Positions 12,772 to 56,565 of a stretch of DNA of 64,000 nt are shown here, piece after piece. The stretch is from IMG/VR virus record IMGVR_UViG_3300020045_012956, positions 1 to 64,000 of that record. One strand, 5' to 3'. Within the stretch, counting starts at the first letter, position 1. Every line of letters starts with the position of its first letter. Source of the stretch: a virus. Its lineage: Duplodnaviria > Heunggongvirae > Uroviricota > Caudoviricetes. A program made the position numbers and the translations under genes. Under the pieces are notes generated by a model that was not told the origin of the DNA, searched no databases, and saw only the letters and a program-made list of their open reading frames with translations.

Positions 12772-14049
12772 ATGAATTTTAACGTACACAAGGCACAAGC
12801 AAAGTTTTTAACATCAAAGGCAAAAGAAGTTTTTTATATTTCTGGTGTAGGTTCTGGTAAATCTATGAGTTTAGCATTAAAAGCTTATGAGAAATTAGCC
12901 ATTAAGGGTTCAGTAGGGTTAATTTGTGCACCTACAACCAAAACACTTAAAAACTCAACTCTAAAACAGTTTCAAAATGCATGGAATTTGATAGGATTTA
13001 AGCCAAAAGATCACTATGTAATTAATAAAAAACCCCCTGAATTTTGGAACGTTCAACCATTTTCAGAATTAAATAACAACTCAATTTTAACTACAAATTG
13101 GGGTTCGTATGCTATTTTAGACGGTTTGGATAACTTTGATTCGCATCGTGGAATTGAAGTAGATTACATTTTAGTTGATGAGTATAGGGACGTAAAAGAA
13201 GGTGCTAGAGAGGTTTTAGTAAGCCGTTTACGTGGTAAAACATTTAAGAATTTAGGATTACAACAAACTATTCATTATGCAACAACACCCCCAAAAAACC
13301 CTAATTACATAAGAAAAATAGTAAGTAACGAATCTCAAAATATTGAGTTTGTTTTTGGTAATTCTTACGATAATATTAAAAATTTGCCCGCTGGTTATAT
13401 TGAGGCCTTAAAAGAACAATATGATGAAATTACTTTCAGACGTGAGGTAATGGGGGAGCTCATAAGCTTAAATAATAAATTATTTGCATATGCTTTTGAG
13501 TTTGATAAACATTGTGAGTGGTTAATTGCAAATTATAATATGCCAATTTATTTGAGTTTTGACTTTAACGTTAATCCTATGACTTGTATTGCTACTCAAC
13601 GGACACCTAATCAAATTCATGTATTAAAAGAATGGAGATTACCAAATTCAAATATTTACGACATGCTAAATCAAGTAAATAAATATAGCAATAAATTTGC
13701 AAATGTATTTGTAACGGGTGATGCTTCAGGTAATAATAAAAATGCAATGGTACGTGACAATTATACATATTATAAAATAATTGCAAAAGAATTAGAGTTG
13801 GGTAGTGATAATATTAACGTCCCAACATCAAATCCAAAACATGAGAATAGTTTTCAATTAACAAATTCACTATTATTAAAACATGGTAATTTGAAAATTG
13901 ATAAAAGTTGCGTTTGGTTAATTGAGGATTTAGAAATGGTAGGAATTAAAGATGATGGAACTATTGATAAAGAGGATGCAGCAAGGGGGCATTTATTAGA
14001 CTGTTTTAGGTATCAACTTTATACATACGATCGTAATTTTAAGATGTAA
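12772..14049 (+). CDS. terL: terminase large subunit
   Basis: Walker A 'SGVGSGKS' and Walker B 'YILVDE'. The C-terminal nuclease region 'VFVTGDASG' and 'GHLLDCFRY' matches the terminase 'DDxxDAxRY' signature. Confidence 0.7.
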   Translation: MNFNVHKAQAKFLTSKAKEVFYISGVGSGKSMSLALKAYEKLAIKGSVGLICAPTTKTLKNSTLKQFQNAWNLIGFKPKDHYVINKKPPEFWNVQPFSELNNNSILTTNWGSYAILDGLDNFDSHRGIEVDYILVDEYRDVKEGAREVLVSRLRGKTFKNLGLQQTIHYATTPPKNPNYIRKIVSNESQNIEFVFGNSYDNIKNLPAGYIEALKEQYDEITFRREVMGELISLNNKLFAYAFEFDKHCEWLIANYNMPIYLSFDFNVNPMTCIATQRTPNQIHVLKEWRLPNSNIYDMLNQVNKYSNKFANVFVTGDASGNNKNAMVRDNYTYYKIIAKELELGSDNINVPTSNPKHENSFQLTNSLLLKHGNLKIDKSCVWLIEDLEMVGIKDDGTIDKEDAARGHLLDCFRYQLYTYDRNFKM

Positions 14050-28641: not shown

Positions 28642-29271
28642 ATGGTATATTTAATTTATAATAAAAATAATAAAACTTGTAAAATAGGACATTCAAAGAA
28701 TCCTAAAAAAAGATTAATTGATTTACAAGTTTCAAGTTCTGATACTTTAGAATTACTTTTTACTAAAGAGGGTGGATCGTTTGAAGAATCTTTATTACAT
28801 GAAAAATACAAAGATTATTTAATTAGAGGCGAATGGTTTAATTATATTCCTGAAATGTCAATTGATTTTAATGGTTATAAATTGAATATAGAATATGTTA
28901 GATTTTATTATGAAAATATAATTGAACAAAAAAGATTCCCTAGTGAAAGGGAAATTGAATTGTTAAGCTTATTAATAAGCAAAATGAAATTTGCAACTAT
29001 AGATATATACATAAATACATCTTTAGTTAAAGATTTAGCAGATAAAATGAATGTTACAACTAGAACAATTTATAATTGTATTGATTCATTGATAAAAAAA
29101 GATTTCATTTACAACCCTTTTCAACATAAATATTTATTAAATCCTAATTATGTTTTTAATGGTCCTGAAGATGATAGAATTAAGGCGTTAAATTCTATAG
29201 TTAAGCTATATAGCGAATTAAAAAATAAAGAAGATATTGAAAATTTAAGTTTAGAAATAGAAAATAAATAA
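28642..29271 (+). CDS. T5orf172-domain (GIY-YIG-like) protein with a C-terminal HTH
   Basis: 'VYLIYNKNNKTCKIGHSKNPKKRLIDLQ...GEWF' matches the T5orf172/MUG113 signature. The C-terminal 'TTRTIYNCIDSLIKKDFI' is an HTH. Confidence 0.5.
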   Translation: MVYLIYNKNNKTCKIGHSKNPKKRLIDLQVSSSDTLELLFTKEGGSFEESLLHEKYKDYLIRGEWFNYIPEMSIDFNGYKLNIEYVRFYYENIIEQKRFPSEREIELLSLLISKMKFATIDIYINTSLVKDLADKMNVTTRTIYNCIDSLIKKDFIYNPFQHKYLLNPNYVFNGPEDDRIKALNSIVKLYSELKNKEDIENLSLEIENK

Positions 29272-49410: not shown

Positions 49411-49732
49411 TTACAGAAAAATAAAAGAAATTGAAGAAAATCATTCAATACAAATAAACCCTATTGAATGTTTCTTATACTCAAAACATAATAACATTAA
49501 TTCTCAAGTAAATAAATATTTTGGTAGATTTATCAAAGATAATATTATTCTAGAAATAGAATTCCACTGGCATTTTTCAGAAATTTATTTGAAAATTAAA
49601 CCAATTAAAGAACTTTATAAATCAGATAGAACACTTTCAATTCAAACATTCTTAACTGACAACAAATCAGTTATTGAAGTAAGCAAAGAAAAGTTTTTTG
49701 AAGAACTTGAAATTATAAAAAGCTTATTATGA
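49394..49732 (+). CDS. hypothetical protein
   Basis: 112 aa. Confidence 0.3.
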   Translation: MKQEINYRKIKEIEENHSIQINPIECFLYSKHNNINSQVNKYFGRFIKDNIILEIEFHWHFSEIYLKIKPIKELYKSDRTLSIQTFLTDNKSVIEVSKEKFFEELEIIKSLL

Positions 49733-51024
49733 ATGAATTTAAGTATCAATTAGAACCCTACAAAGGTAAAAAACACCGTTGCCCTCAATGTAACCATGAA
49801 AAAAGATTTGTTTACTACATTGACATTGATACAAATGAAATAATAAATGAAACTGTTGGAAGGTGTGAACGAGTAGACTCTTGCGGGTACCATTTCACAC
49901 CCTCGCAATACTTCGATCAAAATAAAGTTACTGAATTTGACCCTACTATTTTCACACCCAAAAAGATCATAATCAAAAAAGAAACTTCTTTTATTGATAA
50001 TTCATTATTCGTTGAATCTCAAAAAAATACTTCAAATTCATTTACTCAATACTTAATTCAACTATTTGGAGTAGAAACAACAAACCAACTTATTCAAAAG
50101 TACAGATTAGGAACCTACAATACAGATAAAAAAGGGTTAACAGCGTGGAATAATAGCGTTATTTTTTGGCAATTTGACAATAATAACCAAATCAGAACTG
50201 GTAAAGTAATGCAATATGATTCCAAAACTGGCAAAAGAAATAAGCAATTAAATGCAAATTGGATTCACTCAATTAGTACTTTCAATGACTTTAATCTTAA
50301 TCAATGTTTTTATGCTACTCATTTAACAATCAGTGATTTAACAAGTCCTATTGCAATAGTAGAAAGTGAGAAAACCGCAATTATAGCAAGCGTTTATTTT
50401 CCTAAATTCATATGGCTCGCAACGGGTGGTAAAGAGTTTTTGAATAAAGAAAAGTTTGAATTATTAGGAAATAGAAAAATAGTTTTATTTCCTGACTTGA
50501 ATTGCTTTGATCATTGGAGTGAAAAAATAAAAAAACTTGAAATACAAAACGTAATTGTATCAGATTTAATTGAAACAATTGCATCAAAAGCAGATAAATT
50601 AAAAGGTTTAGACTTAGCAGATTATTTAACAGATTCAAAGTATTCTGAAATTGGATATTTGCCAACCGTTGAACCTCCTAAAATTGAAATTAAAGAGGAA
50701 ATAAAGCCCGTAGAAGTTCCCAAAATACAAACATATACAAAACCACAACAAAACACTTCTTACAGGCTTTTAACTCCTTACGAGGTTAGTAAATTGAATT
50801 TAGGAGAAATTAACCCCCTTAGAATTGATACAAAAAAGATTGAAGAATTAGAACAGTTTTTTGATAACATTGAAATTCCTAATCAGTTGAAATATTTTGA
50901 AACTACTTATTTAGATTTACCATTTTCAATAAAACAATATTTGCACCTAGCAAAAGTCAATAAAAACCCTAGTTACATCAATCATTTAATCAAATTGAAA
51001 TACTATTTTGAAAATTTAATATAG
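49729..51024 (+). CDS. DNA primase (N-terminal zinc finger plus TOPRIM)
   Basis: The N-terminal 'CPQCNHEK…CERVDSCGYH' is a zinc finger. The TOPRIM region 'AIVESEKTAIIAS…KIVLFPDLNCFDHW' supplies the conserved E and DxD residues. Confidence 0.55.
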   Translation: MNEFKYQLEPYKGKKHRCPQCNHEKRFVYYIDIDTNEIINETVGRCERVDSCGYHFTPSQYFDQNKVTEFDPTIFTPKKIIIKKETSFIDNSLFVESQKNTSNSFTQYLIQLFGVETTNQLIQKYRLGTYNTDKKGLTAWNNSVIFWQFDNNNQIRTGKVMQYDSKTGKRNKQLNANWIHSISTFNDFNLNQCFYATHLTISDLTSPIAIVESEKTAIIASVYFPKFIWLATGGKEFLNKEKFELLGNRKIVLFPDLNCFDHWSEKIKKLEIQNVIVSDLIETIASKADKLKGLDLADYLTDSKYSEIGYLPTVEPPKIEIKEEIKPVEVPKIQTYTKPQQNTSYRLLTPYEVSKLNLGEINPLRIDTKKIEELEQFFDNIEIPNQLKYFETTYLDLPFSIKQYLHLAKVNKNPSYINHLIKLKYYFENLI

Positions 51025-51109: not shown

Positions 51110-51508
51110 ATGGAGTTCAAAGAATCAAACATATACAATAATGTATTTGTTTCACAAGATGGAACAATACGAAAAGGGGAACGGGTTTTAACACCTAACG
51201 AAAATAACAAAGTATATATAAATAATGAAAATATATTTATAAGCATTTTAGTTGTTGATGCTTTTATCATGGAATATTCTGAGGTACAGAAAAAAGGGCT
51301 TAAGTTTTGGCACAAGGACGGAAATAAAAAGAATAATACTGTTGAAAACTTACAACTCGTTACACAACAAGAATTAAACAAGTTATTATACGAAAATAGA
51401 TCAAAAGTTATTGCATTTCGAGTTAAGCTTAAAAACTACTCAAAACAATTTAGAAGGGACGTAGACAATTTTATTAAAAATTATGACCCTTCAAAACTTA
51501 AAGATTGA
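51110..51508 (+). CDS. HNH homing endonuclease (free-standing, between primase and helicase)
   Basis: 'FWHKDGNKKNNTVENLQLVTQQELN' matches the HNH_3 signature H-x-D/N-G-N-x2-N-N-x3-N-L. Confidence 0.55.
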   Translation: MEFKESNIYNNVFVSQDGTIRKGERVLTPNENNKVYINNENIFISILVVDAFIMEYSEVQKKGLKFWHKDGNKKNNTVENLQLVTQQELNKLLYENRSKVIAFRVKLKNYSKQFRRDVDNFIKNYDPSKLKD

Positions 51509-52469
51509 GACAGAATCTAAGATTGAAGAAATTAATATTTATCAAAGTGAAATATCAATTGAGAAAAACATTGTTAAACCTGAACGGTTCAAAGATAGGT
51601 TAAGACTAATAAATAAAAAAGGATACCCTGAAGGTTATAAAACATCTATATTTCTTTTAGATGGTAAAATTAGATGGTATAGAAGACAATTATACATAAT
51701 GACTGGTTATTCTTTTGAAGGCAAATCTCACTTAACAGAACAAATAATTTGTTATTTACTTGCAACCAATAAGAATGTAAAAGCTGGTTATTATAGTCCT
51801 GAACATTCAATAGATGATTTTTTTGTTCGACAATGTACTTTATTAGTAGGTAAAGAGTTTGAATATATTACAGAAATTGAATTAGAAGAATGTTTTGAGT
51901 TTTTTGAAAAAAAGATATTCTCAATTGATACAGATGATAAATTATTAAACTTTGATGAGCTTTTAGATTATACAGAATGGTTAGTAAAGAATCGAAACAT
52001 TGAATTTATGATCATTGATAATTGGGCCTCAATACTTTCAGATGACAACAACGCATCAGAAGTAAAACAAGGCATTTCAAGAAACTTAAATAAATTAAGA
52101 GGCTTTGCTAAGAAAGAAAATATATCTTTTTTTCTCATTGCACATCCAAACAAACCACCTGCAAACCGTAATTTAGCCAAACCTATCAAAGGTTACGACA
52201 TTTCAGGGGCGGCAGAATGGCAAGCATTTGCAGACGTTGGATTAACAAGCCATAGGGGTGATTTTCCAATTTTAGACATTTGGAAAGTTAAACAAAAATA
52301 TCAAGGTGGTATAGGAGAATTAGAAATGTTTTATAATAGTAATACAACTCGTTTTGAGTTTGGTGGATTTAACGACAATAGAAATTTAGTAAGAGTTTTT
52401 AATAAATTGGAAAGTGAACCAATTCAACCAACATACACAGATTCAAATTTATCAGACGTACCATTTTAA
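51483..52469 (+). CDS. DnaB/RecA-fold replicative ATPase (helicase candidate)
   Basis: Walker A 'GYSFEGKS', Walker B 'FMIIDNWAS', and 'FLIAHPNK'. Confidence 0.5.
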   Translation: MTLQNLKIETESKIEEINIYQSEISIEKNIVKPERFKDRLRLINKKGYPEGYKTSIFLLDGKIRWYRRQLYIMTGYSFEGKSHLTEQIICYLLATNKNVKAGYYSPEHSIDDFFVRQCTLLVGKEFEYITEIELEECFEFFEKKIFSIDTDDKLLNFDELLDYTEWLVKNRNIEFMIIDNWASILSDDNNASEVKQGISRNLNKLRGFAKKENISFFLIAHPNKPPANRNLAKPIKGYDISGAAEWQAFADVGLTSHRGDFPILDIWKVKQKYQGGIGELEMFYNSNTTRFEFGGFNDNRNLVRVFNKLESEPIQPTYTDSNLSDVPF

Positions 52470-53147: not shown

Positions 53148-55547
53148 ATGAACAACAATTATTTAGAGTTTCTTGAAAAAAAGAAACATTCAATAGGTGA
53201 ATTTGGATTTGAACCAAATTATATGCCTAAAATTGCCTTTGATTTTCAACAGGCAATAATTACAAAAGCAGTTAAAAAAGGGCGTATTGCTGTATTTGCA
53301 GATACAGGATTAGGAAAAGCGCAACCATATTCAGAACCCGTATTAACACCTAATGGATTTATAAAAATGGGTGAACTAAATGTAAATGATTTAGTTATTA
53401 ATTCAGATGGAAAGCATGTTAAAATATTAGGAATTTATGAACAAGGCGTAAAAGATGTTTACAAAGTAACATTTAATGATGGTACATTTACTAGATGCTG
53501 TATTGATCATTTATGGAATGTTAGAACAAGAAACGAAAAGAAAAGAGGATATGACTTTAAAACAAAACCACTCAGTGAAATAATTAAAGATTATTCAAAA
53601 GATATTAAAGATAGTAGGTATCCAGATAAATTATATAAAGATTATAAATATCACATACCAATATGTAATAAAGTTGAATTTGCAGAATCAGAAAATAATT
53701 TACCTATTAATCCTTATTTATTAGGATTGCTTATAGGAGATGGTGGAATGACCAGTAAATCTCTAATTATTACATCAACAAAAAAATCTATATTAAATTC
53801 AGTAACGGAATACTTACCTAAAGAAGATTATTTAGCTGATTCAAAAAGTATTAATTATACAATTAGAAATAAAAAATATTCAAATCAACCTAGCAAAACT
53901 AAAACGGAATTAGTAAAACTTGGATTATTTGGTAAATTATCAAAAGAAAAATTCATACCTGAAATATATAAGTATGCAAGTATTGAAAATAGAGAATTAT
54001 TACTTAATGGATTGATAGATACAGATGGATATAAAGTAAGTAATGATTATATTGAATATAGTACAGCATCAGAAAATCTATGTAATGATATTTCTTTTTT
54101 AGCTAGAAGTTTAGGATATGTTGTTAGAGTTTTTGAAAGAGATTCTCATTATATAAAAGATAATGTAAAACATTCAGGATTTAAAAATTATAGAGTTTAT
54201 ATAATAAAAAACGGTTCTAGAAAATTAAAAACTATAACAAATATCGAATTATGTGATAAAGAAGAATGTAGATGTATTTTAATTGATTGTAAAAGTCATT
54301 TATACATTACAAATAATTTTATTGTAACTCACAATACATTAATCGAGTTGTCAATAGCAAAAAACATTGTAAATCACACAAATAAAAAGGTTTTAATTTT
54401 AACCCCTTTAGCCGTAGCTTTTCAATTACTTCTAGAAGCTGAAAAAATATTTATAGATGACATTGAATATTCAAAGGATGGAAAACACTCAAAAAAAATA
54501 GTTATTTGCAATTATGAAAGATTACATTATTTTGATTCAAATGATTTTATAGCTGTTATTTTAGATGAAAGTTCTATATTAAAAAACTTTGATGGAGCTA
54601 TTAAAAATAAAGTAAATACATTTGTAAAAAAAATTCAATATAGATTTTTAAGTACCGCGACACCTTCTCCAAATGATTTTATCGAATTAGGGACTAGTAG
54701 TGAAGCACTTGGATATATGGGTTATGTAGATATGTTGGGTAAATTTTTTAAACAAAATAATAATGCAATTGATTCAACTAATAAAAATATTGGAGAAAAG
54801 TTCTATTTGAAACCTCACGCAGAAAAAGACTTTTTTGCATGGGTTAATCAATGGTCTATTATGGTAAAAATGCCTAGTGATTTAGGGTTTTCAAATGAAA
54901 AATATATTTTACCTCAATTAATAACTAATAAACATATTGTACAAAATGAAAGCCAAATTGATATAAATGGACAAATACAAATGTTTAATATAGTCGCTAA
55001 AAACTTCAATGAAATTAGACATGAACAAAAACAAACAGAACAACAAAGATGTATAAAAGCTGTTGAGTTAGCTCAAAATAAAACCTCTGTATATTGGTGT
55101 AATACAAATAATGAAAGTGCACTATTGAAAAAAATGGATAAAGAAGCGGTTGAAATTATTGGTAGTCAATCCATCGAAAAGAAAGAAGAAATTTTATTAG
55201 CATTTAGCAAAGGAGAAATAAAACGAATTATTACTAAAGCTAAAATAACATCATTTGGATTAAATTGGCAACATTGCAATCATAGTGTATTTTTTCCTAC
55301 TTGGAGTTATGAACAATATTATCAAGCTATTAGAAGGTTTTGGAGATTTGGACAAAAGAATGATGTTAATATTGATATTGTTGTTTCTGATGGACAAACA
55401 AGAGTACTAGATGCTTTACAACAGAAAACAAAAAAAGCAATTGAACTATACGAAAACCTAACTAAAAACGTTAATAGCGTTTTTGTAAATACTAAAAAAG
55501 AATTCAAAAAAGAAGTTATTTTACCAAAATTTATAAAAAATGAATAA
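53148..55547 (+). CDS. SNF2-family (DExH) helicase interrupted by an intein
   Basis: N-extein '…FADTGLGK' and C-extein 'TLIELSIAKN…' rejoin to the SNF2 motif I 'DTGLGKT'. Also 'ILDESS' (motif II) and 'QAIRRFWRFGQ' (motif VI). Confidence 0.7.
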   Translation: MNNNYLEFLEKKKHSIGEFGFEPNYMPKIAFDFQQAIITKAVKKGRIAVFADTGLGKAQPYSEPVLTPNGFIKMGELNVNDLVINSDGKHVKILGIYEQGVKDVYKVTFNDGTFTRCCIDHLWNVRTRNEKKRGYDFKTKPLSEIIKDYSKDIKDSRYPDKLYKDYKYHIPICNKVEFAESENNLPINPYLLGLLIGDGGMTSKSLIITSTKKSILNSVTEYLPKEDYLADSKSINYTIRNKKYSNQPSKTKTELVKLGLFGKLSKEKFIPEIYKYASIENRELLLNGLIDTDGYKVSNDYIEYSTASENLCNDISFLARSLGYVVRVFERDSHYIKDNVKHSGFKNYRVYIIKNGSRKLKTITNIELCDKEECRCILIDCKSHLYITNNFIVTHNTLIELSIAKNIVNHTNKKVLILTPLAVAFQLLLEAEKIFIDDIEYSKDGKHSKKIVICNYERLHYFDSNDFIAVILDESSILKNFDGAIKNKVNTFVKKIQYRFLSTATPSPNDFIELGTSSEALGYMGYVDMLGKFFKQNNNAIDSTNKNIGEKFYLKPHAEKDFFAWVNQWSIMVKMPSDLGFSNEKYILPQLITNKHIVQNESQIDINGQIQMFNIVAKNFNEIRHEQKQTEQQRCIKAVELAQNKTSVYWCNTNNESALLKKMDKEAVEIIGSQSIEKKEEILLAFSKGEIKRIITKAKITSFGLNWQHCNHSVFFPTWSYEQYYQAIRRFWRFGQKNDVNIDIVVSDGQTRVLDALQQKTKKAIELYENLTKNVNSVFVNTKKEFKKEVILPKFIKNE
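53319..54335 (+). mobile_element. intein (339 aa) with a double-motif LAGLIDADG homing endonuclease, inserted in the helicase P-loop
   Basis: Starts 'AQPYSEPVLTPNGFIKMGELNVNDLVINSDG' (block A-like, Ala1). Two endonuclease motifs: 'LLGLLIGDGGM' and 'LLLNGLIDTDGYK'. It ends '…FIVTHN' followed by the +1 Thr. Confidence 0.65.
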
Positions 55548-56565
55548 AGTTAAAGATCAAATTATTACAGAAAATTATAGCATTTATAATGCTGATTGCT
55601 ACGATGTAGTACAAGAAATTCCAAACGAATCAATAGATCTTTCGGTATATTCTCCTCCGTTTTGTGGGTTGTATAATTACAGTTCAGACCATAGAGATAT
55701 GAGTAATTGCGAATCTAAAGAACAGTTTTTGCAACAATATGAATTTTTAATTGCTGAAATTGCAAGGGTAACCAAAAAAGGACGTATTACTGCTGTCCAT
55801 TGTACAGATGTATTTGATAATCAGTGTAATTTGTGGGACTTCCCAAGCGAAATAATAAAGATTCATGAAAAATATGGATTCCAATATAGAAATAGAATTA
55901 CAATTTGGAAAGAGCCTTTGAAAGTTAGAATGCGTACAATGGTACAATCTTTAATGCACAAATTCATAGTTGAAGATTCTGTAAATTGTTTTACCGCAAT
56001 GCCTGACTACGTTTTAATTTTTACTAAAAAAGGTAAAAATGAAGTACCAGTAACACATCCATGCGGATTAAATTATTATGCTGGTGAAACTCCAATTTTA
56101 CCAAACATTTTAAGAGCTTGGAATAATGCAAATGAATCAAATATAAATGAAGTTCAATTATGGGAACACTTGAAAACTAAATTTGAAGACCACAAAGACC
56201 CAAAAAGCAATAAGTTAAGTCATTACATTTGGCAACGTTATGCTAGTTCTGTTTGGGATGACATAAGAATTGATAATGTTTTACCTTTTAAAGATTCAAA
56301 AGAAGAAGACGATGAGAAGCACGTCCATCCTCTCCAATTGGATGTAATTGACAGATTAGTAGAACTTTACTCAAATCCTAATGAAGTTGTTTTAACTCCC
56401 TTTATGGGGGTAGGTAGTGAGGTTTATAGTCCAGTTTCAATGGGTAGAAAAGCAATTGGAATAGAGCTAAAAGATAGTTACTTCAAACAAGCTATATTAA
56501 ACTTAAAAGAAGCTAAGAATAGATTTAATGATGAAACTAAAAGACAAATATCACTTTTTGAATAA
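55540..56565 (+). CDS. DNA methyltransferase (N6-adenine/N4-cytosine, beta-class order: motif IV before motif I)
   Basis: Motif IV 'DLSVYSPPF' is N-terminal and motif I 'VLTPFMGVGSE' is C-terminal. Confidence 0.65.
   Translation: MNKVKDQIITENYSIYNADCYDVVQEIPNESIDLSVYSPPFCGLYNYSSDHRDMSNCESKEQFLQQYEFLIAEIARVTKKGRITAVHCTDVFDNQCNLWDFPSEIIKIHEKYGFQYRNRITIWKEPLKVRMRTMVQSLMHKFIVEDSVNCFTAMPDYVLIFTKKGKNEVPVTHPCGLNYYAGETPILPNILRAWNNANESNINEVQLWEHLKTKFEDHKDPKSNKLSHYIWQRYASSVWDDIRIDNVLPFKDSKEEDDEKHVHPLQLDVIDRLVELYSNPNEVVLTPFMGVGSEVYSPVSMGRKAIGIELKDSYFKQAILNLKEAKNRFNDETKRQISLFE

Follow-up and report, generated by a model that had tools for sequence, protein, structure and literature searches.

Class 3 inteins are defined by the lack of an N-terminal nucleophile, a Trp-Cys-Thr (WCT) triplet, and a Thr or Ser at the +1 position, and they are known from DnaB, RecG, SNF2, and terminase proteins, mostly within the P-loop (PMC2807308), where insertion between Lys and Thr represents the 'classic' site (PMC5050341). 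Class 2 inteins are instead defined by the lack of the WCT triplet, with the Mja KlbA intein carrying Cys at +1 and Asp at F:4 (PMC2807308). The triplet is necessary, but not sufficient, evidence for class 3 chemistry, because a class 1 intein given only this triplet by grafting failed to splice productively (PMC7664689). An intein family residing at the GK/T P-loops of varied ATPases (the slash denoting the insertion point) has already been described in the literature. The 64,000-nucleotide stretch of viral DNA analyzed here (the window) very probably encodes a class 3 intein of full length that carries a LAGLIDADG homing endonuclease of the PI-SceI type and separates Lys from Thr at GLGK/T in a phage SF2 (SNF2/Rad54-like) DNA helicase. 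Each of the defining class 3 features is found, namely Ala rather than Cys, Ser, or Thr at position 1, the WCT triplet as W66-C319-T337, and Thr at +1.

The precursor, helicase plus intein, is encoded at 53148..55547 on the plus strand, as are all of the features described below, and its frame is open throughout (799 aa, 92.3 kDa by translation; stop codon at 55545-55547). Public assemblies had no record of an identical 799-aa protein. It had been predicted from the sequence that an intein beginning with Ala splits the Walker A motif and that its removal restores DTGLGKT, and this holds to the base, with an in-frame block of 339 residues (1017 bp, 53319..54335) dividing helicase motif I as DTGLGK/T between Lys57 and Thr397. 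The 57-aa N-extein (53148..53318) terminates in motif I as ...FADTGLGK, with Lys57 as the -1 residue (53316-53318), and residue 58 is the Ala that opens the intein (53319-53321). The intein itself, Ala1 to Asn339 (39.1 kDa), spans ORF residues 58-396 and terminates in FIVTHN, after which Thr397 and LIELSIAKN follow. The 403-aa C-extein (54336..55544) contains motif II (DESS), motif III (TAT), and the Helicase_C domain. Taking out 53319..54335 regenerates DTGLGKT and would yield a spliced helicase of 460 aa and 53.2 kDa, and this in silico splicing lifts the Pfam DEAD match over its cut-off (15.5 bits before, 34.0 bits after), with ResIII newly appearing. The strings on which the prediction was built (PVLTPNGFIKMGEL, VINSDG, LLGLLIGDGGM, NGLIDTDGYK, and VTHN) are all present in the translation. 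When the DNA is aligned with the intein-free ortholog from Flavobacterium phage snusmum6-1, the flanks abut exactly (GGTTTAGGTAAA/ACTTTAGTT).

An HMM derived from 120 database relatives matches the inserted block with E=4e-118, far beyond chance, and finds neither a second intein copy nor any other match when run against the window in six frames. Splicing block A (AQPYSEPVLTPNG, 53319..53357) begins with Ala1 and thus has no nucleophile at this position, where Ala is also found in 73 of ~105 aligned relatives. Block B (GTFTRCCIDHLWNV, 53481..53522) contains His64 (B:10, 53508-10) and Trp66 (B:12, 53514-16), which opens the WCT triplet, while block F (ECRCILIDCKSHLYIT, 54264..54311) contains Cys319 (F:4, 54273-75), the triplet's Cys and putative class 3 nucleophile, in a column scored as invariant. 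The C-terminal stretch (54315..54338) comprises Thr337 (G:5), His338-Asn339, and Thr+1 (54336-54338), so that the block ends as predicted, in a terminal Asn followed by one of Cys, Ser, or Thr. Among the 120 relatives, conservation is high for His at B:10 (111/112), Trp at B:12 (107/113), Cys at F:4 (109/111), Thr at G:5 (108/109), Asn at G:7 (108/109), Thr at +1 (106/109), and Lys at -1 (97/104), and the window intein carries the consensus residue at all seven positions. Conservation in the W66, C319, and T337 columns amounts to 95-99%, and in the solved class 3 intein MchDnaB1 the aligned residues are those of H-x-W, R-C-V, and P-T-H-N.

In a scan of Pfam and NCBIfam, neither Hint nor Intein_splicing models matched the full ORF, the intein alone, or a mini-intein construct, even at E<=10. 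However, searching the PDB by phmmer with the intein recovered gp41-1 (E=3.6e-11 and 2e-8, the latter being the wild type), PI-SceI (E=7e-8), and the class 3 inteins MchDnaB1 (E=1e-7) and MsmDnaBi1 (E=3.5e-6). The AlphaFold model of the intein has a mean pLDDT of 95.8 and a pTM of 0.92, and Foldseek places PI-SceI first among its structural matches (E=1.7e-18, TM 0.70), followed by other endonuclease-bearing inteins, with class 3 mini-inteins also matching at a target TM of 0.72-0.75. The intein thus combines a HINT fold and the four splicing blocks (A, B, F, and G). Given the clear PDB sequence matches and this predicted fold, the silence of the Hint models does not count as evidence against an intein and reflects a failure in their sensitivity, even though a missing Hint match had been named beforehand as a refuting result and, in Pfam, formally occurred. 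With a GC3 of 0.083, the intein ranks below each of the 26 ORFs of the window for which this value was determined (mean 0.192, sd 0.037, minimum 0.119), as would be compatible with a foreign origin.

The insert also encodes the two-motif LAGLIDADG endonuclease that had been proposed, matching Pfam Hom_end (E=1.3e-12) and LAGLIDADG_3 (E=4.8e-10). Motif 1 (PYLLGLLIGDGGM, 53712..53750) supplies the catalytic Asp141 (53739-41), aligned with PI-SceI Asp218, and motif 2 (LLNGLIDTDGYK, 54000..54035) supplies Asp236 (54024-26), aligned with PI-SceI Asp326. Lys211 (53949..53951) corresponds in the alignment to PI-SceI Lys301, and 66 of 68 relatives also have Lys here. All three residues are intact and conserved across the intein family, and the Foldseek comparison supports the alpha-beta-beta-alpha-beta-beta-alpha fold in which the two motifs, each with its acidic residue, would lie. 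Once freed, the intein would be expected to use this site to cut intein-free helicase alleles in co-infecting related phages, and repair of the cut allele would then copy the 1017-bp element into it, completing homing.

In the nine closest phage records (tblastn, 60-80% identity band, top matches 74%), DTGLGKT is uninterrupted and the 1017-bp block is absent, and the best 80 IMG/VR relatives (77-83% identity) all retain an intact D[T]GLGKT without a match to the intein HMM. The distribution among relatives is patchy, and the prospect that the block is a native insertion domain of the helicase family rather than a mobile element has essentially no chance of being correct. Nothing was found in its favor, the block is missing from 89/89 of the closest orthologs examined, a comparison that rules it out, and homologous blocks occur at GK/T of unrelated ATPases (PhoH, DnaB, ABC, RecA, UvrD, and terminase). 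The consensus of the 80 intein-free alleles at the junction, TTTGCAGATACTGGATTAGGTAAA/ACTTTAATTCAATTATCAATAGCT, is a candidate endonuclease target, and the fused junction would read ...GATACAGGATTAGGAAAA/ACATTAATCGAG.... Intein endonucleases often decay following fixation, and it is conceivable, if unlikely, that the intein splices while its endonuclease is inactive or lacks targets, leaving a vertically inherited passenger. This would fit with the absence of any close intein relative in IMG/VR or the phage collection, the nearest being 52-53% identical and those recovered by an intein peptide search of IMG/VR reaching <=33%, and for lack of such a relative recent homing cannot be demonstrated. 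Against it, the two catalytic Asp and the conserved Lys are still in place, pLDDT in the endonuclease domain is mostly >90, and target alleles are plentiful, as all 80 close relatives are intein-free, which also indicates that the intein has not reached fixation in this lineage.

A degenerate, non-splicing intein would effectively inactivate the helicase, producing a pseudogene at the protein level, or leave a precursor with some other role. Splicing is deduced here from sequence and modeling, the splicing domain escapes the Pfam Hint models, and Arth_1007 is reported to be a non-splicing class 3-like intein pseudogene (PMC3196547). Nevertheless, we consider such degeneration highly improbable, as the residues that class 3 inteins are known to need are all there (H64, W66, C319, T337, H338, N339, and T+1), the 799-codon frame is open, and the exteins keep all helicase motifs at 74-83% identity to intact orthologs. 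As to the type of splicing, the original prediction spoke of a 'class 2/3-type' mechanism and so left open a KlbA-type intein, in which attack on the N-terminal junction comes straight from the +1 residue and bypasses any internal Cys intermediate. Ala1 does occur in KlbA inteins as well, but the complete WCT triplet, with Cys rather than the Asp of Mja KlbA at F:4 and Thr rather than its Cys at +1, is at odds with class 2 (PMC2807308), which makes this reading scarcely credible and leaves only the class 3 half of the prediction standing. It is the complete triplet, in register with that of MchDnaB1, that assigns this Ala1 intein to class 3.

For a class 3 intein, splicing would be expected to follow the scheme established for the class, on which the following pathway is modeled. 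The 92-kDa precursor would be made first and is presumably ATPase-dead, since its P-loop is split. The Cys319 thiol, activated by block B residues His64 and Trp66, would attack the Lys57-Ala58 bond to form a thioester, the 'block F' branched intermediate, from which the N-extein would move by transesterification onto the Thr+1 side chain, giving the block G branched intermediate. Cyclization of Asn339, helped by His338, would then free the 39-kDa intein, and an O-to-N acyl shift would produce the native DTGLGKT loop in the 53-kDa helicase. Both splicing and the order of these steps are proposed by analogy. The splicing center is also rich in cysteine, with Cys at B:6, B:7, F:2, F:4, and F:9. 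Cys occupies B:6 in 83 of 112 relatives and is common at both B:6 and B:7 in the sub-family. The family as a whole shows no association between the cysteines at B:7 and F:2 (Fisher p=0.23). In the M. smegmatis class 3 DnaBi1 intein, the catalytic Cys is reportedly trapped in a reversible manner by a disulfide or zinc. By analogy, Cys319 might be reversibly trapped by a disulfide or zinc, making splicing a redox- or metal-dependent switch that acts post-translationally to gate the phage helicase during infection and the intein something other than a purely selfish passenger, but we regard this as a speculative and rather improbable scenario.

The identity of the host protein as an SNF2 helicase appears to be only approximately right. 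The spliced extein passes the Pfam cut-offs for DEAD, ResIII (25.6 bits), and Helicase_C (40.5 bits), consistent with an SF2 helicase, but its score against SNF2-rel_dom (22.7 bits) falls under the cut-off of 24.9. All seven PDB matches of the helicase are to SNF2, Rad54, or Sth1, although they are weak (E=1e-4 to 2e-3) and limited to the C-terminal lobe, and PHROGs labels it simply 'DNA helicase' (phrog_62, 5e-47). An N6_N4 DNA methyltransferase gene (55540..56565) overlaps the end of the helicase gene by 8 nt, and the helicase-methylase pair is kept in relatives. Elsewhere in the window, there is an HNH_3 ORF at 51110..51508, in agreement with one of the two free-standing endonucleases said to accompany the intein. 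The other, of the GIY-YIG type, was recovered only as a superfamily (T5orf172/MUG113) ORF at 28642..29271, found by phmmer with an approximate I-TevI sequence and subsequently by Pfam, and a GIY-YIG regular-expression search of the window returned nothing convincing.

These results have several practical implications. The gene should be annotated as one helicase with a mature product of 460 aa, rather than as a 'homing endonuclease' or 'hypothetical protein', and caution is warranted because Pfam Hint models miss the class 3 sub-family to which this intein belongs and because intein sequence has entered several PHROG profiles that bear terminase, primase, or helicase loader labels and would mislabel the block. 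The presence of intein-free alleles in close relatives would suit a natural study of intein homing between phages, and a compact class 3 intein with Ala1 and Thr+1 could join the protein-engineering toolbox. The element is otherwise a textbook one at the classic insertion site. It adds an AT-rich lineage, with Flavobacterium phages as relatives, to the known range of the P-loop-targeting class 3 family and leaves the knowledge of inteins unchanged.

Comparison with known inteins places the element among several well-studied systems. PI-SceI from yeast VMA1 shares the two-domain fold and a double LAGLIDADG site with equivalents of Asp218, Asp326, and Lys301, but it is a class 1 intein (Cys1 and Cys+1) in a V-ATPase subunit and is only ~19% identical to the window intein. 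The cyanophage-like gp41-1 is the best sequence match to the splicing domain, and both have a 'THN' C-terminus and Thr at G:5. It differs in being a class 1 intein with Cys1, Phe at B:12, and Asp at F:4, naturally split and without an endonuclease, and its top-scoring PDB entry, 6riz, is an engineered WCT-grafted variant rather than a natural protein. With the established class 3 inteins (the prototype Mycobacterium phage Bethlehem DnaB intein, D. radiodurans Snf2, and the Msm and Mch DnaB-1 inteins), the window intein shares the absence of a nucleophile at position 1, the Trp(B:12)-Cys(F:4)-Thr(G:5) triplet, the C-terminal His-Asn, and Thr+1, and it lies in the P-loop of a phage helicase-type ATPase; its host protein and phage lineage are different. 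Compared by published residue numbering, the Bethlehem prototype (W67, C320, T339, H340, and N341; PMC2807308) is almost equal in size and layout to the window intein (W66, C319, T337, H338, and N339). A tblastn search of the Bethlehem genome (AY500153, 30-52 kb) found no homolog in that stretch, and the DnaB-like protein annotated as gp62 has just 273 aa; the solved MchDnaB1 and MsmDnaBi1 inteins served as class 3 references in its place. These mini-inteins are only 28-29% identical to the window intein over the 69 N-terminal residues aligned by Foldseek. The element also resembles the metagenomic and phage sub-family at P-loop GK/T sites (P0001-P0120), whose members include inteins of Clostridium phage phi8074-B1, Parabacteroides phage PF672P2, and Vibrio phage 1.244.A and have the same architecture and junctions (GK/AQP...VTHN/T) at 30-53% full-length identity. 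Their hosts are mostly other ATPases (PhoH, DnaB, a DnaC-like loader, terminase, ABC, RecA, and UvrD), but P0001-P0005 and P0056 occupy the same GLGK/T site in related helicases, and the closest relatives begin with Glu1 or Leu1 where the window intein has Ala1.

The helicase gene sits in the phage replication module, and its ORF (53148..55547, + strand) is open throughout its 799 codons. In translation, the N-terminal part (...AVFADTGLGK) stops at residue 57 and is followed by a block of 339 residues, from Ala58 (nt 53319) to Asn396 (nt 54335), after which the helicase resumes as TLIELSIAKNIVNH...; all of the strings quoted in the original prediction were found at the coordinates it gave. In a tblastn search of 50,697 phage records, the closest relatives were the snusmum/hattifnatt group of Flavobacterium phages (74% identity), along with a phage labelled Rhodobacteraceae and a Caudoviricetes contig from spring water, and in each the helicase match comprised two pieces over only ~1,368 nt; the block is therefore absent from them. 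In a DNA alignment with snusmum6-1 gp033, the window flanks adjoin exactly at the junction of GGTTTAGGTAAA and ACTTTAGTT. A scan of IMG/VR yielded 598 confirmed helicase relatives, and among the best 80 of these (77-83% identity) the motif D-T-G-L-G-K-T is intact in 80/80 and an HMM of the block has 0 matches. With the block removed in silico, the match to Pfam DEAD improved from 15.5 bits, under the cut-off, to 34.0 bits, over it, and a ResIII match was gained. The junction of the flanks, the block-free relatives, and the restored Pfam scores therefore establish a precise in-frame insertion of 1017 bp, sporadically distributed, within the Walker A / motif I loop. A native insertion domain would be expected in homologous helicases, and the block is missing both from the closest phage relatives and from the best 80 of the 598 IMG/VR relatives. 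The C-extein residue at +4 (54345..54347) is Glu (GAG) in the intein-containing allele and Gln (CAA/CAG) in 80/80 of the best intein-free IMG/VR alleles and in the closest intein-bearing relatives; possible explanations are a chance difference, an adaptation to splicing, and an altered endonuclease target.

The endonuclease part of the block is matched by Pfam Hom_end (1.3e-12) and LAGLIDADG_3 (4.8e-10), but Hint-type Pfam models gave no match, even when a mini-intein made up of both splicing halves was scanned at E<=10. The splicing domain was detected by a PDB sequence search, which returned the wild-type gp41-1 intein (E=2e-8) and the class 3 inteins MchDnaB1 (1e-7) and MsmDnaBi1 (3.5e-6); the best match, 6riz (3.6e-11), is an engineered variant with a grafted WCT motif, i.e., Trp B:12, Cys F:4, and Thr G:5 of the splicing blocks (PMC7664689). 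The central domain matched PI-SceI (7e-8), with Asp141, Lys211, and Asp236 of the block aligning with PI-SceI Asp218, Lys301, and Asp326. In Foldseek searches of the PDB with an AlphaFold2 model (mean pLDDT 95.8, pTM 0.92, input alignment of 69 sequences), PI-SceI was the best match (E=1.7e-18, TM 0.70), ahead of the Tli/Pho VMA inteins and PI-PfuI, and class 3 mini-inteins gave target TM-scores of 0.72-0.75. Together, the Pfam, PDB, and Foldseek matches show that the block is a bipartite intein in which a two-motif LAGLIDADG endonuclease interrupts a HINT splicing domain, bearing out the original prediction. The intein alone also matches the PHROGs 'terminase large subunit' (phrog_19299, 9e-32), 'DNA primase', and 'DnaC-like helicase loader'; evidently, these profiles were built in part from intein-bearing proteins and would mislabel the block.

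The original prediction left the splicing mechanism as class 2/3-type. In a search of 5.8 billion proteins, 170 relatives of the intein were found at E<=1e-5. Aligned relatives share the junctions GK/AQP...VTHN/T (slash, splice site), and conservation is near complete for His B:10 (111/112), Trp B:12 (107/113), Cys F:4 (109/111), Thr G:5 (108/109), His G:6 (109/109), Asn G:7 (108/109), and Thr+1 (106/109). The window intein has the consensus residue at all seven positions (His64, Trp66, Cys319, Thr337, His338, Asn339, and Thr+1). Class 3 inteins, as defined by Tori et al., lack the N-terminal nucleophile and carry Trp-Cys-Thr at B:12/F:4/G:5 and Thr or Ser at +1; DnaB, RecG, SNF2, and terminase proteins are among their hosts, and most of them interrupt the ATPase P-loop (PMC2807308). 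Kelley et al. consider the Lys-Thr site of the P-loop a 'classic' point of intein insertion (PMC5050341). Class 2 (KlbA-type) is excluded because inteins of that class are without the triplet (PMC2807308). The original prediction proves correct in both observation and interpretation, with the refinement that the intein belongs to class 3 and occupies the P-loop position considered classic. By analogy with its family, Cys319 would attack the Lys57-Ala58 bond, the acyl group would pass to Thr+1, Asn339 would cyclise, and an O-to-N shift would re-form the peptide bond. Grafting WCT into a class 1 intein was not enough for splicing (PMC7664689), so this inferred chemistry still needs experimental confirmation. 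Blocks B and F together hold a cluster of five cysteines centred on the catalytic Cys319: Cys60 and Cys61 (53496..53501) and Cys317, Cys319, and Cys324 (54267..54290). Cys occurs at B:6 in 83/112 relatives and at B:7 in 52/112, with no covariation between Cys B:7 and Cys F:2 across the relatives (p=0.23); redox or zinc control of splicing through this cluster is possible.

The spliced extein (460 aa) scores above cut-off with the Pfam models DEAD, ResIII, and Helicase_C, and PHROGs labels it 'DNA helicase' (phrog_62, 5e-47). Its PDB relatives are exclusively SNF2, Rad54, and Sth1 ATPases (E ~1e-4), but SNF2-rel_dom, at 22.7 bits, falls short of its cut-off of 24.9. The predicted 'SNF2 helicase' is fairly labelled SNF2/Rad54-like SF2 helicase, with strict SNF2 membership unproven.

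The module also encodes a primase-like gene (49729..51024), a DnaB_C-like ATPase (51483..52469), and an N6_N4 DNA methylase (55540..56565); an ERF recombinase is likewise encoded in the window. Of the free-standing endonucleases predicted originally, the HNH is supported (51110..51508, + strand; HNH_3 7e-7, phrog_959); it sits between the primase-like gene and the DnaB_C-like gene, whose first 26 nt it overlaps, and looks like a second homing-type element of the module. The GIY-YIG element is probably the 209-aa ORF at 28642..29271 (+ strand), a putative nuclease with a MUG113/T5orf172 domain of the GIY-YIG superfamily at its N-terminus, a RepL/HTH-like region at its C-terminus, and a GC3 of 0.119, the lowest of 26 ORFs measured. 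The helicase and methylase genes overlap directly by 8 nt (55540..55547), whereas in intein-free snusmum6-1 they are separated by an 'endonuclease' gene, gp035 (4530..5021 of L001, the phage sequence); different selfish endonucleases thus occupy different spots in the same module.

Members of this intein family occur at GK/T of many unrelated ATPases, among them PhoH, DnaB, a DnaC-like loader, terminase, ABC, RecA, UvrD, and canonical SNF2 proteins (DDMGLGK/T). The window terminase large subunit (12772..14049, + strand; Terminase_6N 3.6e-13) is without an intein, though terminase P-loops are a favoured target. The family has also entered non-ATPase sites that keep Thr+1: members among P0040, P0060, P0063, P0079, P0006, and P0077 (database relatives) lie after 'EGN' in CHAP-domain proteins, between 'VGK' and 'TLNFG' in a family A DNA polymerase, and in a protein with PF06841 in its precomputed Pfam domain list. 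The nearest relatives (P0001-P0005; 48-53% identical) have Glu1 as their first residue and interrupt the same GLGK/T site in more distantly related helicases; one adjoins a methylase in a prophage-like contig. In the prophage-like, integrase-bearing Logan DRR489593 contig (L005, 5001..8229), a related helicase holds a same-site intein that starts with Glu1; the helicase frame breaks at a run of eight G shortly before motif II, and the remainder is joined to an N6_N4 methylase in an ORF of 606 aa, reflecting either a sequencing frameshift or a genuine helicase-methylase fusion. With a GC3 of 0.083, the window intein is poorer in third-position GC than any of the 26 window ORFs measured (mean 0.192, sd 0.037, minimum 0.119) and than its flanking exteins (0.143), consistent with foreign origin. 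Together with the intact catalytic residues of the endonuclease and the plentiful intein-free targets (the best 80 of 598 IMG/VR relatives), this fits a horizontally acquired intein that may still be homing. Recent movement cannot be demonstrated because searches of IMG/VR with intein peptides and an exact-protein lookup in public assemblies found no close relative.

The intein is of use to annotation and might also serve as a model for engineering or homing. Its consensus residues align one for one with the H-x-W, R-C-V, and T-H-N elements of MchDnaB1, a class 3 intein of solved structure. A class 3 intein at the P-loop of phage helicases, including SNF2-type, is a combination already in the literature that will not surprise specialists.
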